DNA of 64,000 nucleotides from Acutalibacteraceae bacterium. GTDB taxonomy: Bacteria; Bacillota; Clostridia; Oscillospirales; Acutalibacteraceae. Both the position numbers and the translations under genes were made by a program. The notes beneath the pieces were generated by a model. That model was not told the DNA's origin and made no database searches. It was given only the letters and a program-made list of their open reading frames with translations. Numbering within the stretch: position 1 is the stretch's first letter; every line of letters begins with the position of its first letter. The DNA lies in contig JAZSPN010000133.1 of the NCBI GenBank assembly GCA_045537495.1, forward strand, positions 985 to 64,984. The letters run 5' to 3'. Shown here in pieces: positions 4,898 to 35,261 of this stretch.

Positions 4898-4944
4898 ACG
4901 GCGATCTGCATCGGTTTTACCTTTGCAAATCGCCGTAATTTTTT
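4898..4944 (+). terminator. putative terminator between convergent genes
   Basis: ACGGCGAT...ATCGCCGT forms an 8-bp stem followed by AATTTTTT. The loop is long (23 nt), so the call is only moderate. Confidence 0.4.
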
Positions 4945-4956
4945 CACTAAAAGAGA

Positions 4957-5901: not shown

Positions 5902-5933
5902 AATAAAACCTCCTGTATATATTAAAAAATAAT

Positions 5934-6554: not shown

Positions 6555-6567
6555 AAGACCTCCGTAA

Positions 6568-14442: not shown

Positions 14443-14931
14443 ATGATTTCTCATCCGTTTCCTCCCTTGTACGATGAAAATTCAAAGATACTTATTCTCG
14501 GAAGCTTTCCGTCGGTAAAGTCACGTGAGCAGATGTTTTTCTACGGTCATCCGCAGAACAGATTCTGGAAAGTTATATCGTGCATCACGGGTGCGCCGTT
14601 ACCGGTAACGACGGACGAAAAGAAAAAGCTTTTGCTGTCAAACAGAATTGCACTGTGGGACGTGCTGGCTTCGTGCGAGATTGAAGGAAGCTCCGACAGC
14701 TCGATAAAAAATGCCGTGCCGAACGACATTACGGAGATTCTTGATCATGCCGAAATAGTGAAGATTTTTGTCAACGGAAAGACGGCGGAAAAGTATTATA
14801 AAAAATATGTAACGGATACCGTAAAACGTGAGGCCGTCTGTCTGCCGTCAACTTCACCTGCAAATGCTGCATGGAGTCTTGAAAAACTGACAGACGAATG
14901 GAAACGGAATATTTCGGAATATTTGTATTGA
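14443..14931 (+). CDS. DNA-deoxyinosine (hypoxanthine) glycosylase, UDG superfamily
   Basis: ILILGSFPSVKSREQMFFYGHPQNRFW is the hallmark N-terminal motif of this UDG family. Confidence 0.8.
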   Translation: MISHPFPPLYDENSKILILGSFPSVKSREQMFFYGHPQNRFWKVISCITGAPLPVTTDEKKKLLLSNRIALWDVLASCEIEGSSDSSIKNAVPNDITEILDHAEIVKIFVNGKTAEKYYKKYVTDTVKREAVCLPSTSPANAAWSLEKLTDEWKRNISEYLY

Positions 14932-14962
14932 TAAAAAGACAAAGAATTTGCGGAGATGTATT

Positions 14963-15805: not shown

Positions 15806-15809
15806 CAAA

Positions 15810-16514
15810 ATGAACAGACCTTATATTATTTGCCATATGACGGTGTCGATTGACGGCAAGGTAACGGGAGATTTTCTTTCGAAAGATGAGAGTGCGGCGG
15901 CTTGCGAAATTTACTATGAAATCAACAGAAAAATCAAATCGAACGGATTTATATGCGGACGTGTTACCATGGAAGGCAGCTTTACCGACGGATATTATCC
16001 CGACTTGTCGGAATATGAGCCGAAACGAAAAGATACGGATTTTATACCTGACTCGGAAAGCATGTCGGGCTTTTACGCAGTTGCATTTGATCCGAAGGGC
16101 AGACTCGGCTGGAAGTCGAACAGAATCATCGACGTTGACGGCGATCCCGGGTATGACGGAGCACGGATCATCGAGGTGCTGACACGGCGGGCAGACAGCC
16201 GTTATCTCGGCTATCTTGAAAGCATGAAAATTCCGTACATATTCGCAGGTGAAGCCGAAATCGACGTTGAAACGGCGCTTTTTAAGCTGAAAAACAACTT
16301 TGGCTGTGAAACTCTTTTGCTCGAGGGCGGAAGTATCATAAACGGTTTTTTCCAAAGAGCGGATGCAATAGATGAGCTGAGCCTTGTCGTTGCACCCGTC
16401 GTCGCCGATAAGGATGATAAACCGTTGTTTGACGACGGTAAAACCTCGGATTTTGAGCTTGTTAAAGCGGAATTTGTAAACGGAAATGCAGTTTTGAATT
16501 ACAAAAGAAAATAA
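15810..16514 (+). CDS. RibD C-terminal domain / dihydrofolate-reductase-like family protein
   Basis: SIDGKVTG...LLLEGGSIINGFF...DELSLVVAPVV is the typical pattern. The longer antisense ORF 15708-16556 is rejected. Confidence 0.8.
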   Translation: MNRPYIICHMTVSIDGKVTGDFLSKDESAAACEIYYEINRKIKSNGFICGRVTMEGSFTDGYYPDLSEYEPKRKDTDFIPDSESMSGFYAVAFDPKGRLGWKSNRIIDVDGDPGYDGARIIEVLTRRADSRYLGYLESMKIPYIFAGEAEIDVETALFKLKNNFGCETLLLEGGSIINGFFQRADAIDELSLVVAPVVADKDDKPLFDDGKTSDFELVKAEFVNGNAVLNYKRK

Positions 16515-20156: not shown

Positions 20157-20163
20157 ATAACTC

Positions 20164-20204
20164 GGGGAACAAACCGTGCTTTTCAGTCGGATTGTTCCCC
20201 TTTT
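20164..20204. terminator. bidirectional rho-independent terminator
   Basis: GGGGAACAA-19 nt loop-TTGTTCCCC followed by TTTT, with an A-rich tract on the other side. It sits between the convergent stops at 20156 and 20206. Confidence 0.7.
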
Positions 20205-20205: not shown

Positions 20206-22116
20206 TTATACAGTTTTTTGTTTGCGTATTGTTCTGTCGTCGCGTTTTCCGTACCAGACAATTTCACGGGCATATTCTTCCCAGGACTGTAAATTGTTAC
20301 CGCTCAGCGTTAATTCGCACTTGCCCGACTTCGGACAAACGGATGAGCTGTCAAATACCCTGCCGAAAAATTCATGCCAGTCATAAGAGAACGTTACGGT
20401 CTTTTCACTCTGCATCGGTAAGGTTATGACGGATTTCTGATAATTGAACAAGTCTTTGATTATTTCTTCTTCCGTGTTGACAAGAGTAGACAAGAACACA
20501 TTTATTTCGTTGTAAAACTCTTCCGCTTCGACGGCAAGACACAGAAAAAAGGCTTCTTCAAACGACCAGTAGATATCGCCGAACAGCTTATCGGTGAAGG
20601 ACAGATTTCCTTTTTCCGAGAGAAAACTGTCGATGCTTTTGCACACGTAATCTAATTTTGATTTTATGAATCTGCTTTTATTTTCTATCCGCTCGAATAA
20701 GCTCAAATAAAAATCCTTGTACGAAATTCCTTCCGCTTTTCGAAGGTATATCGCAATAAACCGAAGAAGACCGAAACAGTGAAAGCTTTGTACGCAGACC
20801 GACATTCTGAGAGCACGTCGCCAGTCCTCCCTGCTCATCGTGTCGGTTTCCACGACAAGCTCGGATCTTGAGCTGAAACACAGATCCTCGTCGGCCTTGC
20901 TGTGATTCTGACACAGATGAGAGCGTACCGTTTTAATTCCGTGCATCGCTTTAAACTCTTCCGAATACATCAGTGTGTTCGGAAGAAATTCCAGTCGGTT
21001 AATATTAATCGAGTTGTGCTGACCTGCTTCGATAACCTCAAACAGTCCCGAGGAAAAACTGTCAAAAGTTTCACCGGGAAGCCCCAAAATGATATCGGTA
21101 TAGGTGTACATACCGGCATTTCTGTAAAGTGCCAGCTGCTTTGAAAGATTGCCGATGCTCATGTTTTTTCTGCCGACATTTTCCAGAACCTTTTGCGACA
21201 TACTTTGCACGGCGACGGATATTCCTCTGTTCAGGTTTACCGAATCAAGCTTTTGGTTGATTCTGAAGGTCAGACTGTCCTTATTTTTTGCGGCGGTCGT
21301 TTCAAACTTTTGCGGATAACCGAAATCTTTTTTCAGTTCAACCAGATAATCGACGATGCTTTCGTCGCGATCGAGAATTCCGAAGTTGGAGTCGGCACAG
21401 ATGCAATAGGATATTTTGTTTTGCGCCATCCAGAGAAGATCTTTTCTGACACGCTCAAGCGGAAATTCCCGGAACGTGTTTCTGCCTCCCGCCCAGCAGC
21501 AATATGCACATCTATACGGGCATCCACGGTTGGTTTCGATAATGGCATCGAACTGTATTCCGTCGTATTCCTTTGAGTTTATTATGGAATCAAAAAAACC
21601 TTCCGAATACGGAGAAGGAAGCTCACAAAGATCACATATCTGACGGTGAGGAGTTTTAATGTATTCCCCGTTTTCTCTGAAAGAAATGTTGAAAATCTCT
21701 TCGAAATTTCCGTTGTTCTTCAATGCTTTTAAGATTTCGTAAAACGCGATTTCACCTTCACCGTGAATCAGAATGTCGATATACCCGTATTCCTTTAAAA
21801 AGCTGACATCGTCGGGAACATGAGGTCCGCCGAAAACGATGACGGTATCGGGATATTTCTTTTTTATTTCTTCGGCGAGAACGAGGTTGTATTCCACATT
21901 CCACATGTAGCACGAGAAACCGACAAGGAACGGTGACTCGGTTTTGCAAAGAGCCTCTTCAATCGGCATTTTGGTGAAAATAAACTCTCCCAGCCTGTAA
22001 TGGCTTTTGATGTCTTCGTCTTTAAACGAATATGCGGCAAGACAGCCGATGGAATAAGGCAGAAAGAGAGAACGCGAAAGTGAATTGTTCGGTCCGACCA
22101 GATATACATTTTTCAT
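20206..22116 (-). CDS. B12-binding-domain radical SAM protein, paralogue 4 of 4
   Basis: N-terminal Rossmann-like region with VFGGPHVP; ETNRGCPYRCAYCCW (CxxxCxxC); GLPGET; shared C-terminal region ending EEYAREIVWYGKR. Confidence 0.85.
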   Translation of the reverse strand: MKNVYLVGPNNSLSRSLFLPYSIGCLAAYSFKDEDIKSHYRLGEFIFTKMPIEEALCKTESPFLVGFSCYMWNVEYNLVLAEEIKKKYPDTVIVFGGPHVPDDVSFLKEYGYIDILIHGEGEIAFYEILKALKNNGNFEEIFNISFRENGEYIKTPHRQICDLCELPSPYSEGFFDSIINSKEYDGIQFDAIIETNRGCPYRCAYCCWAGGRNTFREFPLERVRKDLLWMAQNKISYCICADSNFGILDRDESIVDYLVELKKDFGYPQKFETTAAKNKDSLTFRINQKLDSVNLNRGISVAVQSMSQKVLENVGRKNMSIGNLSKQLALYRNAGMYTYTDIILGLPGETFDSFSSGLFEVIEAGQHNSININRLEFLPNTLMYSEEFKAMHGIKTVRSHLCQNHSKADEDLCFSSRSELVVETDTMSREDWRRALRMSVCVQSFHCFGLLRFIAIYLRKAEGISYKDFYLSLFERIENKSRFIKSKLDYVCKSIDSFLSEKGNLSFTDKLFGDIYWSFEEAFFLCLAVEAEEFYNEINVFLSTLVNTEEEIIKDLFNYQKSVITLPMQSEKTVTFSYDWHEFFGRVFDSSSVCPKSGKCELTLSGNNLQSWEEYAREIVWYGKRDDRTIRKQKTV

Positions 22117-22137
22117 TTCGGCGTCCTCCTTTGTGAA

Positions 22138-24054
22138 TTATATTTTTTTGGTTTCACGTATTGTTTTTTTGTTTCTTCTGCCGTACCAGATGATTTTTCT
22201 GGCGTAGTCTTCCCACTCGGTCGGGGCATCGTCGGCGGAGAAGCTGATAACGGACGGCTCACGGACAATGTCGGCTTTTTTATTTGCAAGCACATTTTTA
22301 AAATAAGAATCCCAGTCGTATCGGAATGAGTGGCGGATGCTGTTTTTGCCCGGAACAACAATCAGGCTCTTCTGATATGTCATCAACTCGTTGAAAATAT
22401 CGCTGTCAATATTGAATGACATCAAAAATTCCGATGCTTCGTTGTAGAAATCGTCAAGCTTGTAAATGTAATCTAAAAGCATGGCTTCGTCGTAGGGCCA
22501 GGTGATGTCGCCGAAAATGGGATTGATGTATGACATGTCGACAAGGCCTTCGTCGGTGTTTTTGATACAATTGCTTATCCTTCTCAGCGTGTCACCGATG
22601 ACACCGTCTTTTTCCGAGAAGAAGTCGGTGAAGGATTTATAAAAATTGTAGTAGGAAACACCGAGAGCGTGGTGGACATAAATTGCGAAGCACTGCAACA
22701 GTCCGTGACAGTGAACACTCTGTATGCAGGCGGAAAAGACGGTTGCACGTATAAGGTCGGCGGCACTCATTGTCGAGGTTTCGACGATGTATTCAAGACC
22801 GCCGGCAAAAACGGAATTTGAAATTTTGCAATGGTTGATGTTGAGCTTGTTGACGGCGGTTTTGATACCGAATTTTTCCATGTAATCTTTGTCTGCAAGA
22901 GTAGAATTCGGATAAACCTCACAGCGGAAAACATTGATCGAGTCATGCTGACCGCGTTCGAGAAGCTCACATATACCCTCCGAAAAACTGTCAAGAGTTT
23001 CGCCGGGAAGTCCCAGAATCAATTCGGTATAGGTGGGAATGCCCGCCTTATGATACAGTTCGAGCTGGTCGGACAGCTTATCTTTGTTCATGTTTTTTCT
23101 TGAGATATTTTTCAACACTTCTTCGGACATACTCTGGAAAGCCAGAGAAACGCCTTTGCTCATTCCGACGTCGTTGAGCATCTTGTTGATTGTAAAAATA
23201 CGTTCGGTTTTATCCTTGGCGAAGCAGGCGCCGAATTTGTCGGGGTATCCCGTCTTCTTTTTTTGCTCTACGGCGAAGCGTGCGATTTCTTCGTCACGCT
23301 CAAAGAGTCCGAAATTTGAATCGACGCACATGCAGTATGAGATGTTGTGCTCAGATATCCAGAGGAGATCTTTTTTTACACGCTCAATGGGGAATTGTCT
23401 CATGGGGATGTCGTAGTCGCACCAGTCGCAAAATGAACAGTGATACGGACAGCCCCTGTTTGTTTCAAGCTGGGCATTGAATTCCATGTTTTCGGGAACG
23501 TTGCAAAGCTTGTCGAAGATTCCGCTCAGATACGGGGACGGATAATTTTCTACGCCCTTGTAGCTGTCGGCGGTTTTTATTATGTTGTCATTCTCGTCGC
23601 GGTAAGCGATATTGTCAACGTCGGACAGATCTCCCGACGAATTAAAAGCACGAAGTATCTCGGTGAAGGGAATTTCGCCTTCTCCGAATATCAGTATATC
23701 GATAAATGAATACTCGGAAAGCCATTCGGTGTTTCGCGGTATCTGATGACCGCCGAAAATTATTTTGCAGTCGGGGTAGCGTTCTTTGATTTTCTGTGCA
23801 GTTTCGAGATTATACTTGTAATTCCAGAAGTAATTCGAAAATCCGACTATAAAAGGATCCGAAATGCAATTGAAAACATCCTCTGCCGGGTCCTCTTTAA
23901 AAAATATTCCGTCGAGTTCGTAGCTTTTCCTGATGTCTTCAAACTGCAACGCATAGGAAGACAGAACACCGACGGCGTAGGGGAAATAAACGGAGTTGCC
24001 AAGCAGTGTGTTCGGTTGTACAAAATAGAATTTTTTCTTGCTCAAATGACTCAC
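22138..24054 (-). CDS. B12-binding-domain radical SAM protein, paralogue 3 of 4
   Basis: IFGGHQIP; ETNRGCPYHCSFCDW; GLPGET; C-terminal WEDYARKIIWYGRR. Confidence 0.85.
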   Translation of the reverse strand: MSHLSKKKFYFVQPNTLLGNSVYFPYAVGVLSSYALQFEDIRKSYELDGIFFKEDPAEDVFNCISDPFIVGFSNYFWNYKYNLETAQKIKERYPDCKIIFGGHQIPRNTEWLSEYSFIDILIFGEGEIPFTEILRAFNSSGDLSDVDNIAYRDENDNIIKTADSYKGVENYPSPYLSGIFDKLCNVPENMEFNAQLETNRGCPYHCSFCDWCDYDIPMRQFPIERVKKDLLWISEHNISYCMCVDSNFGLFERDEEIARFAVEQKKKTGYPDKFGACFAKDKTERIFTINKMLNDVGMSKGVSLAFQSMSEEVLKNISRKNMNKDKLSDQLELYHKAGIPTYTELILGLPGETLDSFSEGICELLERGQHDSINVFRCEVYPNSTLADKDYMEKFGIKTAVNKLNINHCKISNSVFAGGLEYIVETSTMSAADLIRATVFSACIQSVHCHGLLQCFAIYVHHALGVSYYNFYKSFTDFFSEKDGVIGDTLRRISNCIKNTDEGLVDMSYINPIFGDITWPYDEAMLLDYIYKLDDFYNEASEFLMSFNIDSDIFNELMTYQKSLIVVPGKNSIRHSFRYDWDSYFKNVLANKKADIVREPSVISFSADDAPTEWEDYARKIIWYGRRNKKTIRETKKI

Positions 24055-24059
24055 CCAAT

Positions 24060-25964
24060 CTACTGTATATACTTAATGTCTGTTATGATGTTCTGACCGC
24101 CTTTTCTGCCGAACCAGATGATCTTTTTCGCATACTCTTCCGGGGAGGAGGGAATGTCGGAAGCGTTTATGAGGACGGTGTTTTTTCTTTCCGCCAAAGG
24201 CAGGCGGGCGTTGGAATAAACCGACTTGAAAAAACCGTACCAATCGAAGGACAGATTCAGTGTTTTCTGACGGGCGTACGGTGATTTTATGACGGAAACC
24301 TGATATTCCGTAAGCTCATCGAGAATTGATTCTGTATCGAAGTAGGGCGTGATGAATTCCTTTATCTCGGAAAAGAACAGATCGAAATCTTTGATTATTT
24401 TAAGAAAGGCACACTCGTCAAGCGGCCAGGTGATTTTTCCGAAGCCGTCTTCAACGCAGGTCAGAGAGCCCTTGTTCTGCAAGACTTCGTTGTATTTGTG
24501 AAGAAGCCAGTAATAGATTTTACCGCAGACCGTTGACGGATTTTCCTTTGCCCATTCGATGACGGCACAATAGAAATCCGTATATTTAACCTGCTTTTCG
24601 TAAAACAGGTAGATGGCAAAACACTGCAATGCGCCGAGATTATGCATGGCTCTTATGAACACCGAGAGAATGTTACAGTCTACCCACATATCTTCCGACA
24701 TATCCGCCGTTGCCACAACGATCCTCGATTTTTCGGGAACGGTATCGTCGTCGGGTACGATGTGATATTGATGCAATTCCGTGGAAGCATATCTGATTGA
24801 ATTCTCTTCAATGTATTCGGGATCATTCATGATCGAATTGACAAGCAACTCGCAGTTGAAAAAATTTATTGACATATGCTGTCCCGCTTCGAGGAGTTGT
24901 TCTATTCCGTCCTTGAAGCTTTCGTACGTTTCGCCGGGCAAGCCGATTATTATTTCGGAATAAGCGGAAATGCCGTTTCCGTTGTAAAGCGCCATGAGCT
25001 TTTTGAAATACTCCAACGGCATATTCTTTCGATAGATTTTATCGAGAACATTCTGATTCATCGACTGGAACGAAAGTGTTGCACCCTTGCTCATTCCCGA
25101 CTGATTGAGCTTTTTGGTGATTTCAAAAACGGTTTCGGGATTATTCTTTGAATAGGTTGCCTGAAATTTTTTCGGGTAACCGGTTTCGTTATGCTTTTCT
25201 ATCAGATAATCGACAATCGCTAAATCACGGGCAAACATACCGAAGTTTGAGTCGGCACAATAACAGTACTCTATCTTGTTTTCCGACATCCAGTCTATTT
25301 CTTTTTTTATCATCTCGATGTCGTACAGCTTTATTTTTGATTTGACATTTCCCCAGTCACAAAAAGCACATCTGTTGGGACAGCCCCTGTTGGTTTCAAG
25401 AATGGCGGAAAAATAAAGCTCCTCACTTTTTACAATATCATCGAAATATCCTTCGGTGTAAGCGGAAACACGCTCGGGAATATCGGGGTGAGAGGCGGTG
25501 TCGGTATGTCTGACGACTCCGTCATCGTTATAGATCAGATTATGAATATTTTCCGCTTTTTCCCGGTTTACAAGATGCAAAAGAAGCTTTCGGAAATTTT
25601 CTTCGCCTTCGCCCTGCAAGAGATAGTCAACATAGGTTTCGAGAACGGATTCGCTGTCCTTTGAAATCTGATGTCCGCCAAAAACAATTTTACATTCGGG
25701 GAAAGCTTCTTTTATCGCTTTTGCAAGTCTTTTGTTAAATTCGTAATTCCATATGTAGCAGGAGAAACCGACAACAAACGGTGTATCGAGTTTTGACACA
25801 ATGTCCTTTATGTTTTCCTTCTTGTATATGAAGCCTTTGAATTCATATTCTTTGCTTACGGTTTCATCCTTAAAAGAATATGCAACCAACGATCCTGCCG
25901 CATAGGGAAAATAAATCGAGTTGCCGTATTTTGAATTAGGCTGAACCATATACAGATTTTTCAA
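24060..25964 (-). CDS. B12-binding-domain radical SAM protein, paralogue 2 of 4 (probable TTG start)
   Basis: VFGGHQIS; ETNRGCPNRCAFCDW; GLPGET; C-terminal EEYAKKIIWFGRK. The TTG at 25964 gives MKNLYMVQPNS, aligning with paralogue 4 (MKNVYLVGPNN), and AAAGGCGG lies 8 nt upstream. The track ORF extends to 26069 and overlaps paralogue 1. Alternative starts are the GTG at 25973 and the ATG at 25940. Confidence 0.8.
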   Translation of the reverse strand: MKNLYMVQPNSKYGNSIYFPYAAGSLVAYSFKDETVSKEYEFKGFIYKKENIKDIVSKLDTPFVVGFSCYIWNYEFNKRLAKAIKEAFPECKIVFGGHQISKDSESVLETYVDYLLQGEGEENFRKLLLHLVNREKAENIHNLIYNDDGVVRHTDTASHPDIPERVSAYTEGYFDDIVKSEELYFSAILETNRGCPNRCAFCDWGNVKSKIKLYDIEMIKKEIDWMSENKIEYCYCADSNFGMFARDLAIVDYLIEKHNETGYPKKFQATYSKNNPETVFEITKKLNQSGMSKGATLSFQSMNQNVLDKIYRKNMPLEYFKKLMALYNGNGISAYSEIIIGLPGETYESFKDGIEQLLEAGQHMSINFFNCELLVNSIMNDPEYIEENSIRYASTELHQYHIVPDDDTVPEKSRIVVATADMSEDMWVDCNILSVFIRAMHNLGALQCFAIYLFYEKQVKYTDFYCAVIEWAKENPSTVCGKIYYWLLHKYNEVLQNKGSLTCVEDGFGKITWPLDECAFLKIIKDFDLFFSEIKEFITPYFDTESILDELTEYQVSVIKSPYARQKTLNLSFDWYGFFKSVYSNARLPLAERKNTVLINASDIPSSPEEYAKKIIWFGRKGGQNIITDIKYIQ

Positions 25965-25983
25965 AACCCGCACCGCCTTTCTC

Positions 25984-27921
25984 TTAATCTGTTTTTTCAA
26001 CCCGGTTAGGAGCTGCCGAATACAGCATCCTTCCGTTACGCCGACCGTACCAGACAATTTCACGTGCATAGTGGGTCCAATCTTCGGTGCGGAACGGTGT
26101 TGAAAATTTATACAAGGTGTTTTCTTTTTTCAGTGGCTCATATTCGTTGCGAAGTATCGCGCCGAAATATTTTTCAAAATCATATTCGAATTCATTTTTG
26201 AATTCATCGACCGTCGGTCTGAGCACCACCGACTTCTGATAACGAAGAAGCTGATTTAAGAAATCTTCGTCTTTGATATAACGTCTGACAAAAACAGATA
26301 TTTCATCAAGGAATAAATCAAAATCATAAAGACACAGCAAAAATACGGCTTCCTCGAGAGGATATGTAATCTTGCCGAATGGCTCTGCCTGATAGGTTAA
26401 TCCGCCTTGTCCGCTTACGAATTTATTCAGAACATCGGATACCATTTCAAAAATGTTTTTCAAAAATACGCTTTCGTTTAAAATAAAGCTGTATAATTCG
26501 GTGTAAAAATCATAATAGCTTACGTCGTATTCATGGCGGATATACATGGCAACACATTGCAGAATTCCGAAGTGGTGCATACTCTGGACACACGTTGAAA
26601 ACTCGTTTGCACGTATCCAGTCACGAACGCTCATTGTTGCCGTTTCAACTATTATGGAAGAAAATCCGGAAAGCATATTATCCATGTTTTCGCAATGATA
26701 TTGATTCAGAGAAGTTGAAACCGTTTTGATTTTAAACTTATCGATATATTCTTTCGTGCTGAGCAATGAGTTGGGCAGCAGCTCACAGTAATACGCACTT
26801 ACCGAGCTGTGCTGACCAAGCTCCAGAATCTCACACAATCCGCGTGTAAAGCTTTCGTATGTTTCTCCGGGCAACCCGAGAATGAGTTCGGTATATGTCG
26901 AAATTCCCGCATCACGGTATCTCGCGATCTGCGAAGCGTATTCTTCCCTGCTGATGTTTGTTCTGCCGATATTATCGAGAACATCGGGCGAAAGGCTCTG
27001 AAGTGCAAGCGTGGCACCCTTGCCGATACCGTGATCCGCAAGAAGCTTGTTTATGCGGAACACTCTGTCGTGGTTGCTTTTTGAATAGGAAACCTGCAAG
27101 CGGTTTGGATATCCGTTTTCGGTTTTCAGCTGTGCTAATTTTCGGGCGATTATTTCATCTCGGGGGAACATTCCGAAATTTGCATCTACGCAATATACAA
27201 ATTCCATTTTGTTTTCCGACATCCATTCGAGCTCCGCCAAAACTTTTTCCAGAGGGAACAGTCTTACCTTTGAGTTCAGCTCTCCCCAATCGCAATAACA
27301 GCAGTTATAAGGACAGCCTCTGTTTGTTTCGAGAACACAGGAGAAGCGATAGTTCTTATTTTTGATTATGTCGTCGAAAACACCGTTTAAATAGGGTGAC
27401 GGATAATCCGAAATCGTAATCTGTTTTTCGGGCGTCTGAGTCGCAATTCCCCGAGATGTTCTGAATGAGATGTTTGGTATTGCGGAAAAATCGGGATCGT
27501 TTTTCGTGAGCTCCTCCAACACACCTTTGAAAGCTTCCTCACCTTTTCGGTGGATAAGAATATCAATAAAGCTGTATTTGTCGAGATATTCGGTTGAGGG
27601 AGGTATATGGTGTCCGCCGAATTCAATTATACACTCGGGGTACCTGGATTTTAATCTTTCGGCATATTCGAGGTTGTACTGATAATTCCATATCGAGTTG
27701 GAAAATCCGACGAAAAAGGGATTATCCAGCCCTTCAATGCTCTCGTCGATATCCTCGAGGCTGTAAATTATTCTTTTGAGCTCATATTCTTCCGCTATGT
27801 GTTCATCGTTAAACGCATAGGCGGCGAGCATACCGACGGCGTACGGAAGATAGTAGGTATCTCCGTATAAGCAGCCTGCCTGTACAAGATAAATGTTTTT
27901 CTTATTGCTCATTTTTGTCAC
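25984..27921 (-). CDS. B12-binding-domain radical SAM protein, paralogue 1 of 4
   Basis: EFGGHHIP; ETNRGCPYNCCYCDW; GLPGET; C-terminal WTHYAREIVWYGRR. Confidence 0.85.
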   Translation of the reverse strand: MTKMSNKKNIYLVQAGCLYGDTYYLPYAVGMLAAYAFNDEHIAEEYELKRIIYSLEDIDESIEGLDNPFFVGFSNSIWNYQYNLEYAERLKSRYPECIIEFGGHHIPPSTEYLDKYSFIDILIHRKGEEAFKGVLEELTKNDPDFSAIPNISFRTSRGIATQTPEKQITISDYPSPYLNGVFDDIIKNKNYRFSCVLETNRGCPYNCCYCDWGELNSKVRLFPLEKVLAELEWMSENKMEFVYCVDANFGMFPRDEIIARKLAQLKTENGYPNRLQVSYSKSNHDRVFRINKLLADHGIGKGATLALQSLSPDVLDNIGRTNISREEYASQIARYRDAGISTYTELILGLPGETYESFTRGLCEILELGQHSSVSAYYCELLPNSLLSTKEYIDKFKIKTVSTSLNQYHCENMDNMLSGFSSIIVETATMSVRDWIRANEFSTCVQSMHHFGILQCVAMYIRHEYDVSYYDFYTELYSFILNESVFLKNIFEMVSDVLNKFVSGQGGLTYQAEPFGKITYPLEEAVFLLCLYDFDLFLDEISVFVRRYIKDEDFLNQLLRYQKSVVLRPTVDEFKNEFEYDFEKYFGAILRNEYEPLKKENTLYKFSTPFRTEDWTHYAREIVWYGRRNGRMLYSAAPNRVEKTD

Positions 27922-27974
27922 CTTGATAAAAAATCTGTTTCAGAAGATTCAGTTTCGTTTTGTTAAGCGATGCT

Positions 27975-29072
27975 TTATAATCTGTTTCCGGCAACGGTAA
28001 GTATGCTGTCCAGAATGGTGATTTGTATATTTTTAAAGATGTATTGCGTCAGGAAGAAGTAAGCGAGAAAAGAAACGCATACGGATATTTTGTGCTTGTT
28101 ATAAAACGTTGAAAAATCGTGGGCAATTTCGGACGTTGTTTCGGGATCGTACAGAGAAATGAAAATTATTGTAATCGTGCACATAAGAGAGCAGACGCTG
28201 ATGCTCTGGGGGTATCTCCATATTCCTGCAAAAATCATGGCGAAAGCCGGTAAAACGAACCACAGGAAGCTTGCGTTGTCAAAAGCGAAACGCAGGTTTT
28301 TTCTTTCCCCGTTGGATTTTTTCAGGAGATATTTCGTTATAAATACCGCGAGCAGGAAAAAATACGGAACGGAAACGAAGACAAGACGTCTGTCGGTAAA
28401 ATAGCTGAAAATCTGCACGGGGATAAAATCGTTTTTGATGTTGTTCAGCAAATCCGCCAAAGGTGTTGTTTTGATAAACACGGAAAGAAGAATCAGTGCT
28501 GCGAATGCCGCGGTAAGGGTGACTCTTTTTTTGGCAACGAGCCTCTTGTTGGCGGATATTTGTTTTTTCTTGATTTTGCCGACGGGGTTTAAAAGCTTTT
28601 CTTCTGTCGGTAACAGGCTGAAGCCGTAGACCAGTGCCGCAACGGGAATATGACAGAAAATTGCAGTTGAATCGATTAATATTGAAAAGATAACGAAGAC
28701 GGCCATGAGAATTGATTTAAGCCTGAAGGATTTACCTTCGGCAAAACAGAGGCACAGCAATAAAGTGACAAGCAACAAAAAATTGTATTCAAAAGTCAGG
28801 ATGGAATATCTGAAAAACGGATCGACAATCAACAGAACGGCACAAAAACCGAACACGATGTTTTGAAGCTTTAACAGCTTATGTAAAATTACGGCGTAGA
28901 CCGCACTGAGAAGAAACGAGGTGACTATCGCATAAACGGACAGCGTAAGCTGAGTGGTGTTAAGGAGGAAAGAATCAAAATTAAAAAGAGAGAGATCTGC
29001 CGGCAGATAGAAAATCTTCAACGCGAAAGCGGCGACAAAGCAATAAAAAAGGTGCGTTTTCTTTGTATTCAT
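27975..29072 (-). CDS. polytopic integral membrane protein, family not recognised
   Basis: 365 aa and almost entirely hydrophobic helices (about 9-10), with one basic loop KIKKKQISANKRLVAKKR. It lies 22 nt after the upstream membrane gene and 53 nt before radical SAM paralogue 1. Confidence 0.7.
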   Translation of the reverse strand: MNTKKTHLFYCFVAAFALKIFYLPADLSLFNFDSFLLNTTQLTLSVYAIVTSFLLSAVYAVILHKLLKLQNIVFGFCAVLLIVDPFFRYSILTFEYNFLLLVTLLLCLCFAEGKSFRLKSILMAVFVIFSILIDSTAIFCHIPVAALVYGFSLLPTEEKLLNPVGKIKKKQISANKRLVAKKRVTLTAAFAALILLSVFIKTTPLADLLNNIKNDFIPVQIFSYFTDRRLVFVSVPYFFLLAVFITKYLLKKSNGERKNLRFAFDNASFLWFVLPAFAMIFAGIWRYPQSISVCSLMCTITIIFISLYDPETTSEIAHDFSTFYNKHKISVCVSFLAYFFLTQYIFKNIQITILDSILTVAGNRL

Positions 29073-29094
29073 AAGAAATAACTCCCAACGAACA

Positions 29095-30309
29095 TCAGGC
29101 TAAAATTAATGAAGTGAAATATGCCGTCATACATACAGATAAAAGCGTATTTGCTTTAATCCAATCCGTGGCTTTTCTGACAGATTTTAATACACAGATA
29201 TTGCCTCTTGCGATGTAGTAAATTATCAACGAAAGCTGAACCAGTAAATTGTTATAAAAATATTTGCTGGATTCCCAGGAAAAAACTATGGGGAGAATAA
29301 TTACGACGGGAGAAATCAGACACAGGAAGAAAATGAATTTCTGAAATTTGTTTTCACATTCCGACATACAGTTTTTCCAGAACAGCGTGAGGATGCCGAA
29401 TACCGGGATCATGAGGAAAATAAGATCCATTAAACAAACCTTCCAGTTTTCCCATTCGATAAAGTATATCTGAAAAGCTTTTTTGATAATTACATCCATT
29501 TCGTCGAAATAGTCGAAAAGCCATTCCGTTTCAAATTTTGCATAATTCAAATCGCTGAGGACTCCGGAGTATCTCGAGAAATAATAGTCCATCATCTCGT
29601 CGGGAGTATTGAAGCCGAGATGCTTTTCCGAGAGAAGAGCATATATCCCGACCGCTATCATGGAAATGTAGCAAATCGCACATATCGCACCGTGTTTTTT
29701 GGAGAATCCGCTTGAAAAGAACTCCTGCAACAGAATTATTGCTATTAAAATCATACTGCAAAACAGAAAAATCGGATTAACAAGCGTTGCGGCTATACAC
29801 AAAAAAGGAACGCCCCATATTGCGTACTTTTTATCGACGAGAAGAACGGAAAAAAGTGTCAGTGCCCAGAGCAATTTATCCAGCTTGACATCGGGATAGT
29901 AATTGCGGAATGAGCCGGGCAAAACACAGATTACGATGCTGATTATTGCTACAAGAAAAAGGTGACGCGGATTATTTTTGACTTTTGACAGAGCCTTTCC
30001 TATGCAGAGAGCTGCCGAGATCATGAGCAGAAAAGAAAAGAGAATAACAACCTTTTGCGTAAGATCATCGGAAACGACGGGATAAAACCAGCTTATTACC
30101 TCGCCGACCAGACCTCGTGCGACAAAACCGTGATCGTATGTATACAGATAATGAATCAGATAATATCCCGGCACACTTTGTATATCGTTGTTTAATGTCA
30201 ACGTCAGCAGGTATCCGCCGAGAGCTGTAAAAGGAACGAGATAACAGACGAAAGACGTTGCCCTGTCGTTCCGGGTAAAACGGTAAAAAGATGATTTTAT
30301 TCTCTGCAT
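29095..30309 (-). CDS. polytopic integral membrane protein, family not recognised
   Basis: 404 aa with about 10-12 hydrophobic helices, one soluble loop (~residues 230-285) and an early YDHGFVARGLVGE motif. It is the first gene of the operon. Confidence 0.7.
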   Translation of the reverse strand: MQRIKSSFYRFTRNDRATSFVCYLVPFTALGGYLLTLTLNNDIQSVPGYYLIHYLYTYDHGFVARGLVGEVISWFYPVVSDDLTQKVVILFSFLLMISAALCIGKALSKVKNNPRHLFLVAIISIVICVLPGSFRNYYPDVKLDKLLWALTLFSVLLVDKKYAIWGVPFLCIAATLVNPIFLFCSMILIAIILLQEFFSSGFSKKHGAICAICYISMIAVGIYALLSEKHLGFNTPDEMMDYYFSRYSGVLSDLNYAKFETEWLFDYFDEMDVIIKKAFQIYFIEWENWKVCLMDLIFLMIPVFGILTLFWKNCMSECENKFQKFIFFLCLISPVVIILPIVFSWESSKYFYNNLLVQLSLIIYYIARGNICVLKSVRKATDWIKANTLLSVCMTAYFTSLILA

Positions 30310-30389
30310 AATAAATATCTCACCTGCTCAACTTTATCGAAAACCGAATAAAACTGTTCATAATACTCCGATTATAATTATACTTTTTA

Positions 30390-30418
30390 AGTATATCACA
30401 TTTATTTGCAAAAGTCTA
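30390..30418 (-). promoter_or_regulatory. candidate promoter of the membrane/radical SAM operon (TAGACT-17 nt-TATACT with TG extension)
   Basis: The minus strand reads TAGACT (30418-30413), a 17-nt spacer ending TGA, then TATACT (30395-30390). This is the best -35/-10 pair I found in the AT-rich 30310-30470 gap. Confidence 0.35.
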
Positions 30419-33052: not shown

Positions 33053-33700
33053 TTAACGGCTTTCTTTGAGTATGTTTTTTGCAAGAGGCTTTACCGACAG
33101 GAGAACGGTGCAGGCTATAACGGAAAGAGCCGTTTCGGGAATCATATAGGAAGCGTTATATATCAACGAATAGATTGCGCTGAGGGCGATTCCCGAGTAT
33201 TTTGTGATTACGGCTTCACCCCACGAGTAAAAGCCTTCCTGAGTGAAAAACTGCTCGGCATAGCTTCCGTAAAGAACGATTCCCGATATTGTATGAGTGA
33301 TAAATCTCAAAAAACATGAAAAAACCGCTCCGACGGACAGTGCGACAGTCGGCTTTTTGAAAAAGTTTCTGAAAACACCCGCCGTACCGATAACCGAAAA
33401 GCCGATAAAATAGTCAAGCAGTATCATCAAAACGGCGGATACGAGATTGAGTCCCGCAAGAGCGCCCGAAGAGGATATTCCGAGTATACACTGAAATATT
33501 CCGTCAACGAATCCGCATAAGAGTCCGTATTTTGTTCCGTACAGAAAAGATGCGACCATTATCGGGACCATGCCGAAAAGAGTGACTTCGCCTCCGAAGG
33601 GGAGTGCAAAAATTTTTATTACCGACAGTAAAACGGAAAGCGCAACAAGTATACTGCATACCGCAAGACGTTGAGTTTTAAAATTTGATTTTTCAGACAC
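33053..33700 (-). CDS. thiT: ECF-transporter S component for thiamine (ThiT/YuaJ-like)
   Basis: Six-helix protein whose blocks align with ThiT (LLDYFIGFSVIGTAGVFR; FLRFITHTISGIVLYGSYA). It sits directly behind a TPP riboswitch. The GTG at 33700 has a GAGGAG SD; the ATG of the track ORF lies inside the riboswitch terminator. Confidence 0.75.
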   Translation of the reverse strand: MSEKSNFKTQRLAVCSILVALSVLLSVIKIFALPFGGEVTLFGMVPIMVASFLYGTKYGLLCGFVDGIFQCILGISSSGALAGLNLVSAVLMILLDYFIGFSVIGTAGVFRNFFKKPTVALSVGAVFSCFLRFITHTISGIVLYGSYAEQFFTQEGFYSWGEAVITKYSGIALSAIYSLIYNASYMIPETALSVIACTVLLSVKPLAKNILKESR

Positions 33701-33713
33701 AAGAAACACTCCT

Positions 33714-33747
33714 CGAAAATTAAAAGGACGTTGGAAATCCAACGTCC
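33714..33747 (-). terminator. riboswitch expression-platform terminator
   Basis: The minus strand reads GGACGTTGGA-tt-TCCAACGTCC followed by TTTTAATTTT, between the TPP aptamer and the thiT SD. Confidence 0.65.
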
Positions 33748-33761
33748 TGAGTTTTTCAATA

Positions 33762-33832
33762 ACTTCCTACGTCGGCATTACCCGAATCAGGTTAAAGGGT
33801 ATGATCTCAGCCTTGCGGCACCCCTGTACTGT
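33762..33832 (-). promoter_or_regulatory. TPP (THI-box) riboswitch aptamer
   Basis: The minus strand reads ACAGGGGTGCCGCAAGGCTGAGATCATACCCTTTAACCTGATTCGGGTAATGCCGACGTAGGAAG. It contains the conserved GGGGUGC, CUGAGA, ACCC, ACCUGAU, UAAUGCC and CGUAGG elements in order. Confidence 0.88.
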
Positions 33833-33836
33833 TATT

Positions 33837-35261
33837 TTATTTTTGCTGAGCTTTTCCCTCGGGAGTATCACGGTAGTAATACGTTTTCGTCTTGGGATGC
33901 TCTTTGGAATTCCAGAGTTTTTCCGCTTCGGGAGCCCACTGTGCGGCGAATTTATCGCATCGCGAACAAAGTGTTTCGACACTCTCGGGTGCGAGGAAAT
34001 CCGTTGACTTTGCATTTGTTTCGCCGATGATTTTTCTCAGACAGTCGGGATTTTCAAGCATGGGACACGGACGGAGATGGTTGTCGTTAAACGGCTGTCC
34101 GTGGAAAAATGCCTGAAACAGCGGTCTTTGAAGCGCCTCGAAAAGCGTATGAGTGCGGATATTCGAATCGGAATAATGAATGAATACGCACGGCTCAATG
34201 TCGCCCGCCGAATTGATGTGGAAATAGTTTCTGCCTGCGGCAATGCATCCGCCGACGTACTCTCCGTCATTCTGGAAGTCCATGACAAACATGGGTTTTC
34301 CCGTTTTCTGATCACGTATACGGCGAAGCCACGAATACATATGCTTTCTTTGGTCGGGAGTGGGAATGAGCTCGGGAAGAGCATCTTTTCCTATCGGCAT
34401 ATAGTTGAAGTAAAGTCCGAATTTTGAGCCCTTTTCAATCATCAGATCAATGAAAGCGTCGTCGGTTACCTGGTCTATATTTGCAGAAGTATAGCAGACG
34501 GAAATGCCGAAAAGGCATCTGTTCTTTTTGAGAAGATCCATGGCGGCAAGCGTCGTTGCGTAGCTTCCCTCTCCTCTGCGGAAATCGTTGCTTTCGGCAG
34601 AGCCTTCAATGCTCAGAGCAACGGTGAGATTTCCGAGTTCGTTCATCTTTTTGCAGAAGGCATCGTCGATCAGAGTCGCATTCGTATAGCAAAGGAACAT
34701 ACAGTCGGGATGCTCACGGCAAACTTCATAAATATCGTTTTTGCGGATGAGGGGCTCACCGCCCGTAAGCATATAGAGATGAGAGCCGAGTTCCGTGCCC
34801 TGGTTTACGATGTCCTTCATCTCGTCGAGGGTGAGAGAATATTTGCTTCCGTATTCGGCAGACCAGCAGCCCTTGCAGTTTCTGTTGCAGGCACTCGTCG
34901 GATCGAAAAGAATGATGTACGGGAAGTTGCATTTGTATTTCTCACGGTTTTCACGAACGGTTTTTGTGCCGATGTAATTTCCGTAACCCATCGCCATGAA
35001 GCCTTTTTTTACGGTATCGCGGTCAATATCGTTGAGAATAGAAAGAGCATATCCCGTCCAGATATTTTCGGGATCACCTATGGCATTACGGAACTTATCA
35101 AAGTTCTTCTGAGGGAAAATGCCTTTGGTAAGAGCTTCCGCCTTGTCGATAAGCTTCAAAAGGTTTTCCTGGGGATTTTTGTCGATATATTTCAATATGC
35201 CGTCAAGAGCGGCACTTGTGGCAGAAAACTTGATTTTGTCAAGAGCCTTCATCGAAGACAC
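33837..35261 (-). CDS. radical SAM protein with C-terminal SPASM/twitch-like Cys region, function unknown
   Basis: CNRNCKGC (CxxxCxxC) at ~residue 125; C-terminal GGCIAAGRNYFHINSAGDIEPCVF...RPCP...; an N-terminal ~110-aa helical extension precedes them. Confidence 0.8.
   Translation of the reverse strand: MSSMKALDKIKFSATSAALDGILKYIDKNPQENLLKLIDKAEALTKGIFPQKNFDKFRNAIGDPENIWTGYALSILNDIDRDTVKKGFMAMGYGNYIGTKTVRENREKYKCNFPYIILFDPTSACNRNCKGCWSAEYGSKYSLTLDEMKDIVNQGTELGSHLYMLTGGEPLIRKNDIYEVCREHPDCMFLCYTNATLIDDAFCKKMNELGNLTVALSIEGSAESNDFRRGEGSYATTLAAMDLLKKNRCLFGISVCYTSANIDQVTDDAFIDLMIEKGSKFGLYFNYMPIGKDALPELIPTPDQRKHMYSWLRRIRDQKTGKPMFVMDFQNDGEYVGGCIAAGRNYFHINSAGDIEPCVFIHYSDSNIRTHTLFEALQRPLFQAFFHGQPFNDNHLRPCPMLENPDCLRKIIGETNAKSTDFLAPESVETLCSRCDKFAAQWAPEAEKLWNSKEHPKTKTYYYRDTPEGKAQQK

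Follow-up and report, generated by a model that had tools for sequence, protein, structure and literature searches.

A tandem set of TokK-like B12-binding radical SAM paralogues in Acutalibacteraceae and its possible place in lipid-carrier glycosylation

An operon that joins two genes for integral membrane proteins with four tandem genes for B12-binding radical SAM (rSAM) enzymes raises the question of which substrate the enzymes modify and what the membrane proteins do with it. Class-B rSAM enzymes are known from rather different pathways: TokK/ThnK are sequential methylases of carbapenem C6, CysS and KedN5 turn a methoxy group into branched alkoxy groups by iterative methylation, and GenK/GenD1 and Fom3 methylate carbons of sugars, of aminoglycosides or of a cytidylylated phosphonate. 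The explanation we propose, to which we give an even chance of being right, is a lipid-carrier ('three-component') module for extracytoplasmic glycosylation, in which TokK-like methylases would modify a GDP- or polyprenyl-phosphate-linked sugar.

The window analysed here is a stretch of 64,000 nucleotides from an Acutalibacteraceae bacterium. As the first-pass annotation of this DNA had claimed, the ORF listing contains six minus-strand genes (20206-30309) forming a tight operon, with intergenic gaps of about 5-60 nt. The operon and its boundaries comprise the following features:

30371-30399, minus strand: candidate sigma-70-type promoter GTGATA-17-TATAAT (consensus scan, 10/12 match) in the AT-rich leader upstream of M1
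29095-30309, minus strand: M1, ORF, 404 aa, polytopic membrane protein, PF27463 'Rv1490', candidate GT-C-like glycosyltransferase
27975-29072, minus strand: M2, ORF, 365 aa, polytopic membrane protein, fast-evolving
25984-27921, minus strand: R1, ORF, 645 aa, TokK-like B12-binding rSAM enzyme, orthogroup D
24060-~25973, minus strand: R2, ORF, about 637 aa, TokK-like B12-binding rSAM enzyme, orthogroup E
22138-24054, minus strand: R3, ORF, 638 aa, TokK-like B12-binding rSAM enzyme, orthogroup K
20206-22116, minus strand: R4, ORF, 636 aa, TokK-like B12-binding rSAM enzyme, orthogroup B
20160-20204, no strand assigned: hairpin with GGGGAACAA...TTGTTCCCC stem, RNAfold dG -22.3 kcal/mol, T-rich tails on both strands

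The longest ORF of R2 reaches 26069 and overlaps R1; the starts that fit the paralogue alignment are GTG 25973 or TTG 25964, and AGAAAGG lies upstream of both. The hairpin stands between the convergent genes for R4 and an XRE regulator and is likely the bidirectional terminator that had been suggested; a simple terminator scan missed it, probably because of its long loop. The promoter proposed at the other end is only plausible, since promoter-like sites in the region (27) are in no excess over shuffles (22 +/- 4.3).

R1-R4 are 39-43 % identical in pairs, with a mean column identity of 61 %, and the motifs FGG.H, ETNRGCP..C..C.W, GLPGET and YA..I.W.G are invariant in their alignment. The Pfam Radical_SAM model is above threshold in each; for the B12-binding model, R2 and R4 exceed the gathering score, which R1 and R3 narrowly miss, and the same search gives no SPASM match. 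For all four the top NCBIfam model is KedN5 (NF033712), whose 231-262 bits, about one third of the 700-bit cut-off, cover roughly the N-terminal 370-460 residues, and they lie under the cut-off of every curated NCBIfam subfamily. In phmmer searches of the PDB, R4 matches TokK 7kdx (E 3.4e-91, residues 4-585) and CysS 9n1b (E 1.6e-49). Judged by homology, R1-R4 are full-length three-domain relatives of TokK and of CysS/KedN5, having a B12 Rossmann domain, a radical SAM core and a common C-terminal region which corresponds to the TokK C-terminal substrate-binding domain. The first reading of these proteins, namely quoted motifs, lack of a SPASM-type cluster, and old, specialised class-B paralogues outside the characterised subfamilies, thus agrees with the alignment and HMM searches.

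The active site also resembles that of TokK/ThnK, with a base-off cobalamin site, and CysS/KedN5 have the same Trp context under the cobalamin. CxxxCxxC is present in 256/256 members of the family; TokK Trp76, the residue beneath the corrin, is kept in R1-R4 and in 228/256 members. Its loss in the other 28/256, together with weak NCBIfam matches to OxsB/BchE/ThnL/AprD4-type enzymes, which are non-methylase members of the B12-rSAM class, would suit another reading, namely that the paralogues, in part or as a whole, catalyse some B12-rSAM reaction other than methylation of their common substrate: epimerisation, dehydration, formation of C-C or C-S bonds, or contraction or closure of a ring, for example. 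We consider this unlikely, because R1-R4 all retain equivalents of the TokK/CysS-specific Trp76 and active-site Trp215 along with the entire TokK architecture, and because every one of their closest characterised relatives methylates sequentially.

With TokK, CysS and KedN5 as closest characterised homologues, one may also think of a secondary-metabolite pathway modelled on carbapenems, cystobactamids and kedarcidin, in which alkyl or alkoxy groups are built on a diffusible antibiotic-like scaffold and the membrane proteins export the product. The genomic context makes this highly improbable. While TokK/ThnK occurs singly within the antibiotic cluster of an actinomycete, the family of R1-R4 occurs in gut Clostridia as 1-9 diverged paralogues per locus by glycosylation genes, amounting to 283 paralogues in 82 rSAM-anchored loci, nearly all of them from Acutalibacteraceae/Oscillospirales MAGs. 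Neither the window nor the related loci hold a carbapenam synthetase, other carbapenem genes, NRPS, PKS or a carrier protein, there is no aromatic-acid or enediyne context around R1-R4, and the scores are far under the KedN5 cut-off. Moreover, Arg280, the carboxylate anchor for the TokK substrate, is replaced in R1/R2/R3/R4 by Q/Q/G/E. The replacement is fixed by orthogroup, being Gln in 22/22 members of D (R1), Gln in 22/22 of E (R2), Gly in 13/13 of K (R3) and Glu in 26/27 of B (R4), and 7/10 group-specific positions fall in the RS domain. Such a pattern, constant within orthogroups and differing between some of them, is expected of regiospecific paralogues on one scaffold.

A third reading takes the substrate to be a ribosomal peptide or lipoprotein, which would be C-methylated in the RiPP manner known from PoyC or the bottromycin methylases, with M1/M2 as exporter or immunity proteins. 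With TIGR03975, a model for RiPP C-methyltransferases, R4 gives a weak match (93.6 bits), all four weakly match ApyD, and directly upstream of the operon stands a gene for a 105-aa lipoprotein. However, the TIGR03975 scores are far under the cut-off of 282, the intergenic gaps are too small for a precursor ORF, and neither a protease nor an ABC exporter nor a RiPP recognition element is present, the six-gene operon being free of peptidase, ABC, PKS/NRPS and sugar-nucleotide genes. A separate hairpin terminator (dG -25) serves the lipoprotein gene, which has 0 homologues in 93 related loci, and the recurring neighbours of the rSAM genes are sugar and glycosyltransferase genes. We therefore regard a peptide substrate as very unlikely.

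These neighbours support the glycosylation reading. The rSAM paralogues fall into conserved orthogroups, and more than 10 genomes repeat the gene order of the window. Within 10 kb of the rSAM genes, 63/82 loci have one or more of F1 (a DPMS/ArnC-type GT2), F3 (an Fkp-like sugar kinase/pyrophosphorylase) and M1, F1 being found in 47/82, F3 in 31/82, M1 in 29/82 and M2 in 20/82; no such partner is seen within this distance in 19/82, for example beside the three tandem copies in L002-L004. The F1 profile matches DPMS, the Dol-P-Man synthase (5mlz, E 5.9e-21), ArnC (E 2.7e-11) and GtrB (E 2e-5) in the PDB, and F3 has Pfam fucose pyrophosphorylase and GHMP kinase domains. GDP-heptose genes also recur, among them the family F6 with HddC and GmhB matches. 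In most loci sharing the rSAM orthogroups of the window an Fkp-like gene lies between M2 and R1, often together with the DPMS-type GT2. The window operon is a trimmed version, without the Fkp and GT2 genes, of a cluster family widespread in Acutalibacteraceae and other Oscillospirales, and the earlier statement that a sugar-nucleotide gene is missing holds for the trimmed operon but not for most of its relatives. Which rSAM orthogroups a locus has varies together with its kind of sugar-activation gene: of 25 loci with D/E/K/B sets, 16 have the long Fkp-like gene and none has heptose genes, and other sets have an HddA-like kinase and HddC-GmhB in 11/45, a relationship confounded by phylogeny.

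The membrane proteins had been considered unclassifiable, and M1 and M2 indeed have no match in the local Pfam or NCBIfam. Among 172 homologues of M1, however, the identical protein P0121 carries PF27463 'Rv1490', an uncharacterised Pfam family. The AF2 model of M1, a confident one (pLDDT 91.7), has PglB 6gxc as best Foldseek match (prob 0.95, E 0.086, TMq 0.37) and ALG3 9s6r as a further top match (TM 0.38/0.40), the family profile matches no PDB sequence, and the first external loop is acidic and contains the invariant motif YYLIHYLYTYDHGFxRGLVGE. The fold comparison weakly suggests that M1 is a GT-C-like glycosyltransferase. M2 (pLDDT 74.7) gave no informative match, chain I (685 residues) of the OST-A translocon 8b6l (E 0.35) being not significant, and has 12 representatives among 1.8 billion proteins; it belongs to one family with the 'F7' proteins behind M1 in other loci (hhalign prob 99.7 %), and may be a flippase, an anchor or a second transferase. 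M2 comes after M1 in 15/16 intact rSAM-anchored loci, and in a search anchored on M1 all homologues on long contigs (4/4) have M2 next in line and these rSAM genes on their flanks. The first-pass annotation had named membership of a characterised subfamily, and homologues unlinked to the membrane genes, as sequence findings that would speak against it; the searches gave the opposite in both respects.

Glycosylation systems of three or more components acting across the membrane include GtrA/B/C, ArnC/ArnT, CsbB/GtcA/YfhO and DPMS with PMT/ALG (reviewed in PMC8035078), and the pentofuranose PPPRS/MATE/GT136 systems (Kelly et al. 2024, PMC11127046). Like them, the related loci place a DPMS/ArnC/GtrB-type GT2 beside polytopic membrane proteins for which GT-C enzymes are the top fold matches, so that the arrangement, thought at first to map onto no described pathway, fits this known skeleton. 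It differs in that neither M1 nor M2 falls into a characterised GT-C family, F1 is without TM helices, and no GtrA- or MATE-type flippase is recognisable. Our literature search found no paper describing an rSAM battery in such a module. To our knowledge no described system of this kind has radical SAM enzymes, still less arrays of them, and the battery appears to be an undescribed addition to the skeleton; the clusters in these related gut bacteria suggest that cell-surface sugars are decorated in a way not described so far.

The operon itself has neither a GT2 nor a sugar-activation gene, which counts against the glycosylation model. Elsewhere in the window, 15 kb off and outside the operon, lies one candidate:

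4168-4890, plus strand: F1-family GT2, DPMS/ArnC/GtrB-type polyprenyl-phosphate glycosyltransferase catalytic domain, without TM segment

Its product matches Pfam Glycos_transf_2 above the cut-off (48.7 bits), is 49 % identical to the rSAM-adjacent F1 gene product of L025 and matches the F1 genes of 50 loci (tblastn). That it serves the operon in trans is possible, as a guess.

In the proposed pathway, a sugar would first be activated to a GDP-sugar, by Fkp-like or GDP-heptose gene products in the relatives and from a source outside the operon in the genome of the window. The F1-type GT2 (4168-4890 in the window) would then move the sugar onto polyprenyl phosphate. The soluble R1-R4 would use a 5'-deoxyadenosyl radical derived from [4Fe-4S]/SAM, and methylcobalamin, each methylating its own unactivated carbon in the sugar while this is linked to the nucleotide or the lipid, or else acting at successive stages of alkyl build-up, like TokK and CysS. 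Finally, the GT-C-like M1 together with M2 would flip the sugar, once modified, to the outer face of the membrane and attach it there to a polymer of the cell envelope. Class-B enzymes offer precedent for this chemistry, in that sugar carbons are C-methylated and nucleotide-tagged substrates accepted; GenK/GenD1 and Fom3, however, serve antibiotic pathways rather than envelope glycan precursors, and R1-R4 are closer to TokK and CysS.

The battery could instead methylate a lipid, either the polyprenyl-phosphate carrier or another isoprenoid or long-chain membrane lipid, yielding multiply methyl-branched lipid (glyco)phosphates to be handled or exported by M1 and M2, by analogy with HpnP/HpnR, the GDGT methylases and the methyl-branched mannosyl phosphomycoketides. 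Several class-B enzymes do methylate membrane lipids, and HpnP/HpnR, GrsA/GrsB and BchQ/BchR are likewise sets of regiospecific paralogues on one membrane-associated scaffold; F1, the commonest partner, works on polyprenyl phosphate, and the only partners inside the window operon are membrane proteins. CrtI-family FAD oxidoreductases with 2Fe-2S partners stand within the rSAM arrays of 8 loci, and a separate FAD_binding_3 enzyme adjoins lone rSAM genes in some; these enzymes would suit an isoprenoid moiety better than a sugar. On the other hand, no lipid- or isoprenoid-synthesis gene recurs across the related loci, whose neighbourhood is one of sugar activation and glycosyl transfer, not of hopanoid, GDGT or chlorophyll synthesis, and the HpnR, HpnJ and BchE models give R1-R4 28-62 bits against cut-offs of 480-650. 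Covariation with sugar-activation genes is not predicted for a carrier-lipid substrate, TokK, CysS and KedN5 act on small polar scaffolds with a handle and not on hydrocarbon chains, and R1-R4 have no membrane segment. A lipid substrate hence seems rather unlikely. The membrane-resident substrate favoured by the first-pass annotation is still the best reading, although the lipid, lipoprotein and peptide options listed there are less supported than a polyprenyl-phosphate-linked sugar.

For the polyprenyl-phosphate-linked sugar a second route is indicated by one locus (L093), where an rSAM-M1-M2-rSAM-rSAM block adjoins a decaprenyl-phosphate phosphoribosyltransferase (228 bits, cut-off 207), a HAD phosphatase and an F1-like gene with a weak AglJ match; the first two fit the published pentofuranose three-component systems (PMC11127046).

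Six open reading frames lie on the minus strand exactly where the first-pass annotation had placed a six-gene operon, and they encode two polytopic membrane proteins (M1 and M2) followed by four TokK-like, cobalamin-binding radical SAM (rSAM) paralogues (R1-R4):

29095-30309, minus strand: M1, ORF of 404 aa
27975-29072, minus strand: M2, ORF of 365 aa
25984-27921, minus strand: R1, ORF
24060 to about 25973, minus strand: R2, ORF with its start at GTG 25973 or TTG 25964
22138-24054, minus strand: R3, ORF
20206-22116, minus strand: R4, ORF

The intergenic gaps are about 5-60 nt. A hairpin (dG -22.3 kcal/mol) with T-rich tails on both strands lies between R4 and a convergent XRE-family gene, and the 105-aa gene upstream of the operon has a terminal hairpin of its own (dG -25); this geometry of tight spacing and flanking hairpins makes co-transcription of the six genes likely. 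A promoter-like site at 30399-30371 agrees at 10/12 positions, such sites being not above the shuffled-sequence frequency in the region. The longest ORF of R2 (24060-26069, minus strand) starts 86 nt inside R1, so automatic annotation may extend the product to 669 aa; both the alignment with its paralogues and the ribosome binding site point to 25973 or 25964 as the start, and AGAAAGG precedes both candidates. Neither the region before the operon nor six related loci gave a match to a cobalamin or other riboswitch. The only RNA elements found in the window are a tRNA and a TPP riboswitch (33747-33835, minus strand; 64.3 bits, above the gathering score), which is unrelated to the operon and stands directly upstream of a gene for a YuaJ/ThiT-type thiamine ECF S-component (33053-33742, minus strand). 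The lipoprotein encoded by the 105-aa upstream gene was considered as a substrate and rejected, as its homologue is absent from related loci.

The four rSAM proteins are 39-43 % identical to each other in pairs. All of them match the Radical_SAM model PF04055 with 39-58 bits (cut-off 29.5), the motifs quoted in the first-pass annotation are invariant across R1-R4 and a SPASM domain is absent, as had been noted there. The cysteines C203, C207 and C210 are invariant in R1-R4, and the CxxxCxxC pattern occurs in 256/256 family members. For the B12-binding model PF02310, R2 (45.0 bits) and R4 (39.5 bits) score above the gathering score and R1 (27.2 bits) and R3 (27.9 bits) just under it; the cobalamin domain of TokK can be aligned with all four proteins, GGPHVP and Trp76 included. 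By phmmer, residues 4-585 of R4 align with residues 12-609 of TokK (7kdx) at E 3.4e-91, and R4 matches CysS (9n1b) at E 1.6e-49. Because R4 aligns over residues 4-585 with these proteins, the C-terminal region of about 220 aa shared by R1-R4 is assigned to the TokK-type C-terminal domain, and the paralogues are thus predicted to adopt the three-domain TokK-type fold with its specific C-terminal domain included. The best curated model for R1-R4 is the KedN5 family NF033712, to which they align at profile positions of about 1-470/624 with 231-262 bits, missing the family cut-off of 700; all other rSAM subfamily models score them far lower. With no curated subfamily cut-off reached by any of the four among the models tested, the earlier view that they do not belong to a characterised subfamily holds.

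TokK, ThnK, CysS and KedN5 methylate in successive rounds and so assemble ethyl, isopropyl or tert-butyl substituents at sp3 carbons, and in class B rSAM methylation the methyl group comes from methylcobalamin, with SAH and 5'-deoxyadenosine produced. From homology to these enzymes, sequential C-methylation is most likely the chemistry of R1-R4, although some paralogues may perform a non-methylase B12-rSAM reaction on the same substrate, an alternative that overlaps with the main model. As to what is methylated, a RiPP substrate has little support: the model of RiPP maturation rSAM C-methyltransferases (TIGR03975) gives 39-94 bits for R1-R4 at a cut-off of 281.85, and the gaps of the operon leave no room for a precursor ORF. 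A diffusible metabolite as substrate likewise has little support, and carbapenem biosynthetic genes were found neither in the window nor in related loci. In TokK, all three domains, the C-terminal one included, contribute to the substrate channel, Trp76 sits under the corrin in surroundings shared with CysS, Trp215 is in the active site, Arg280 anchors the carbapenam C3 carboxylate, and a long pantetheine handle is held in a preformed channel (10.1101/2021.07.10.451909). The equivalents of Trp76 and Trp215 are present in R1-R4 and in 228/256 family members, including all members of the four orthogroups D, E, K and B to which R1-R4 respectively belong. The Arg280 position, in contrast, is occupied by Gln in R1 and R2, by Gly in R3 and by Glu in R4. 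Hence R1-R4 resemble TokK and ThnK in the three-domain fold and both tryptophans, whereas the arginine and the carbapenem gene context are absent from them.

To describe how far this family extends, the four-paralogue alignment was scanned against one genome per GTDB species, which gave at least 600 matching stretches; of the 600 matches listed, 584 were confirmed as relatives. A protein search returned 4,636 homologues at E <= 1e-10. Almost all come from human and ruminant gut MAGs assigned to Acutalibacteraceae, Oscillospiraceae or unclassified Clostridia. ORFs were then called and clustered in 81 loci fetched from among the matches listed plus the window, and these 82 loci hold 283 family members, with 1-9 per 22-kb locus. 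In some MAGs one contig holds 10-15 copies, and the largest array among the matches listed is formed by two adjacent loci (L023 and L030) at about 121-160 kb of contig CAZTCR010000001.1, with about 15 TokK-like rSAM genes and copies of M1 and of a GT2 family (F1). Average-linkage clustering at 45 % identity places R1, R2, R3 and R4 in separate orthogroups, and the order D-E-K-B is repeated in L001, L006, L008, L010-L013, L021, L024 and L034. In L082, M2, an F1-like gene and an Fkp-like sugar kinase/pyrophosphorylase gene (F3) precede the same four-gene layout; L090 and L091 have it after M1, M2 and F3, and L090 includes an F1-like gene too. Further orthogroups (A, C, F-J, L and more) are found in other genomes. 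At the Arg280-equivalent position the residue is Gln in 22/22 members of D and 22/22 of E, Gly in 13/13 of K and Glu in 26/27 of B. Such fixation within orthogroups, with different residues between some of them, supports the proposal of the first-pass annotation that the copies have specialised. The group-specific positions are only 10, of which 7 lie in the RS domain, and the comparison places part of the paralogue divergence at the predicted substrate site. As a separate observation, three tandem copies of orthogroup B (that of R4) with spacers of 220-250 nt occur at about 7870-14070 in L002-L004, where no GT2, Fkp or M1 gene was found within 10 kb of the copies and no Rfam family in the spacers between them.

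The genes accompanying the paralogues elsewhere give the main indication of the pathway. By HMM-based counts in the 82 loci, F1 is a neighbour in 47, F3 in 31, M1 in 29 and M2 in 20, and at least one of F1, F3 and M1 occurs in 63. Since a metagenome scan with the M1 profile yielded 5 short contigs only, look-ups anchored on M1 were used instead, and in 4/4 homologues on long contigs an M2-like gene comes next and rSAM genes flank the pair. The membrane genes are thus linked to rSAM genes in other genomes too, and the association first read from a single operon recurs. F1 is a DPMS/ArnC/GtrB-type glycosyltransferase of about 250 aa, whose family profile matches, along the full catalytic domain, the Pyrococcus Dol-P-Man synthase 5mlz (E 5.9e-21), ArnC (2.7e-11) and GtrB (2e-5), but it is without their C-terminal transmembrane helices. 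F3, of about 815 aa, combines a fucose-pyrophosphorylase domain with a GHMP kinase domain, and among NCBIfam models it scores best with the bifunctional fucokinase/fucose-1-phosphate guanylyltransferase and next best with HddA. Loci with other orthogroup sets add a stand-alone HddA-like kinase, an HddC-GmhB fusion, SDR epimerases/dehydratases and a cupin. In L093, genes for an Acyl_transf_3 protein, a 701-aa protein, a decaprenyl-phosphate phosphoribosyltransferase, a HAD-IB phosphatase and an F1-like protein (2263-8032) stand before a block of rSAM-M1-M2-rSAM-rSAM. The UbiA-family enzyme among them scores 228 bits against the curated decaprenyl-phosphate phosphoribosyltransferase cut-off of 207, and the gene content of the locus reads as the same module combined with a route of DPA or pentofuranose type.

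Compared with these relatives, the operon of the window is a trimmed version of the cluster, because only 53 nt separate M2 from R1, at the place where the closest loci examined (L005, L082, L090 and L091) carry the Fkp-like gene and two of them (L082 and L090) also an F1-like gene of 237-249 aa. L005 is 81 % identical to R1 and L082 75 % identical to R4. The statement of the first-pass annotation that the operon contains no sugar-nucleotide gene is true of this operon but unrepresentative of the system, since relatives carry the Fkp-like gene. No Fkp homologue was found in the 64-kb window, and the F1-type GT2, absent from the operon, has its sole window copy about 15 kb away in another, unrelated-looking operon:

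1160-4890, plus strand: overlapping four-gene operon with the F1-family GT2 as its last gene
4168-4890, plus strand: F1-family GT2, 49 % identical to the rSAM-adjacent F1 of L025 and above the Pfam GT2 threshold

The partners of this copy are a 463-aa alpha/beta-hydrolase/pyrophosphatase-like protein, whose C-terminus resembles inorganic pyrophosphatases, a NUDIX hydrolase and a metallophosphoesterase; the operon may serve in the turnover of nucleotide sugars or lipid phosphates. The three partners were rejected as parts of the system, as they do not recur near rSAM genes in other loci. Also rejected were F8, a D-2-hydroxyacid dehydrogenase which most likely belongs to a serA/serC housekeeping pair because a class-V aminotransferase adjoins it in L059, and a 647-aa GH-like gene after R4 in L001 and L034, which is unrelated to the DUF4838 protein of the window. 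In L092, a 342-aa non-B12 radical SAM protein with weak MoaA/NirJ-like matches (14799-15827, minus strand) lies together with an SDR epimerase between the Fkp-like gene and the TokK-like rSAM genes.

Regarding the membrane proteins, precomputed annotation assigns PF27463.1 to P0121, a protein with the same sequence as M1 (100 % identity), and to most homologues; this family is named 'Rv1490' and includes an M. tuberculosis protein, and 3/4 of its hits in the M1-anchored loci are marked weak. M1 had no match in the Pfam copy searched (which lacks PF27463) or NCBIfam, nor by family profile among PDB sequences; Pfam scans of M1 homologues annotated PF19830 gave no match, and the literature on DUF6311 and Rv1490 offered nothing on function. 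An AlphaFold2 model of M1 from 49 homologues has pLDDT 91.7 and pTM 0.89. With Foldseek it has no PDB match at E <= 0.001, the best non-GPCR ones being PglB (probability 0.95, E 0.086, TMq 0.37) and then yeast ALG3 (TM 0.38/0.40). M1 has a positively charged N-terminus and an acidic first external loop with two predicted short helices, in which lies the most conserved motif of the family with its invariant residues; these modelled loop features are compatible with a GT-C enzyme without proving it. M2 forms one family with the proteins that follow M1 elsewhere (F7; hhalign probability 99.7 %). Its homologues numbered 2 in a word-index search and 12 representatives in an exhaustive search among 1.8 billion proteins, and the protein is fast-evolving. 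The M2 model has pLDDT 74.7, and its best fold match, a chain of the human OST-A translocon, is not significant. M2 could be a flippase, an anchor for the TM-less F1 or a second transferase; no GtrA or MATE flippase domain was detected in the operon proteins with Pfam or NCBIfam. That M1 and M2 are mutual paralogues is not supported (hhalign probability 27 %).

Three- and multi-component extracytoplasmic glycosylation is known from Gtr, Arn, CsbB/YfhO and DPMS plus GT-C systems (review PMC8035078), and pentofuranose systems of this kind were described by Kelly et al. 2024 (PMC11127046). The related loci are like three-component systems in GDP-sugar activation, a DPMS/ArnC-type GT2 and polytopic, putatively GT-C-like proteins, and L093 adds a polyprenyl-phosphoribose synthase, which would give a second path to a polyprenyl-P-sugar. 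ArnD and DprE1/E2 are known examples of enzymes that act on a sugar already bound to its lipid. We therefore give about even chances to a lipid-carrier glycosylation module in which the rSAM enzymes modify a handle-bound sugar and M1 and M2 deliver it to the envelope. In such a module, a sugar would be activated to a GDP-sugar and loaded by the DPMS/ArnC-type GT2 onto polyprenyl phosphate; the soluble rSAM enzymes would modify it while GDP or polyprenyl phosphate serves as its handle, with a separate position or step for each enzyme; and M1 and M2 would transfer the modified sugar to an envelope polymer.

In the main rival the lipid moiety is methylated instead of the sugar. A CrtI-family FAD oxidoreductase lies between rSAM genes in eight of the loci with other orthogroup sets (L042, L048, L049, L058, L063, L070, L071 and L073), followed in most of them by a 2Fe-2S (Fer2) protein. 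This enzyme is the main hint that an isoprenoid moiety may be modified, and CrtI-like and other FAD enzymes inside some arrays favour the rival. However, lipid-synthesis genes are absent and the rSAM sets covary with sugar genes: in raw counts that ignore phylogeny, the long Fkp-like gene accompanies D/E/K/B sets in 16/25 loci and heptose genes accompany them in none, whereas the HddA-like kinase and HddC-GmhB accompany other orthogroup sets in 11/45. We consider methylation of the lipid unlikely.

Returning to the sugar as substrate, a bolder version, tentative and in our opinion rather doubtful, would see here a new class of glycan modification in gut Oscillospirales, with 3 to more than 9 regiospecific TokK-like methylases and transfer by the new GT-C-like Rv1490/M1 family and M2; as part of the same tentative version, several C-methyls or branched alkyls would be set on a sugar bound to GDP or polyprenyl phosphate, which might, for instance, be a 6-deoxyhexose of the fucose type or a heptose. 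If so, the surface would carry poly-C-alkylated, partly hydrophobic sugars, and different paralogue sets would write different 'methylation codes'. Class-B rSAM methylases and lipid-carrier glycosylation are known kinds, and their combination and the scale of the radiation are not described. Beyond the uncharacterised PF27463 for M1, no curated family was found to cover R1-R4, M1 or M2. Searches of the full-text literature found no link of cobalamin-dependent rSAM enzymes with lipid-carrier glycosylation, glycans or undecaprenyl, nor with fucokinase, GDP-heptose genes or Acutalibacteraceae. To our knowledge, cobalamin-dependent rSAM C-methylation has until now been associated with antibiotics, cofactors, RiPPs and a small number of lipids. 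The proposal, if true, would be the first link, as far as we found, of this chemistry to envelope glycan assembly on lipid carriers, and would give a function to a family of more than 4,600 homologues (E <= 1e-10) in abundant and poorly cultured gut Clostridia. It would also mean new C-branched or chain-extended sugars, possible antigens or phage receptors tied to the gut B12 supply, a first functional handle on the Rv1490 membrane-protein family, and, for biocatalysis, a naturally occurring set of TokK-like methylases that differ in regiospecificity.

Elsewhere in the window, a 474-aa radical SAM/SPASM-type protein is encoded 3.5 kb upstream of the operon (33837-35261, minus strand), with weak matches to AhbD and to mycofactocin and sactipeptide maturases, all far under the cut-offs. 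At 53118-57365 (plus strand), an MFS_2 glycoside transporter gene is followed by genes for an MBOAT and then a DHHW/AlgX-like SGNH protein, and the MBOAT and SGNH proteins resemble a polysaccharide O-acylation pair of the AlgI/AlgJ type.
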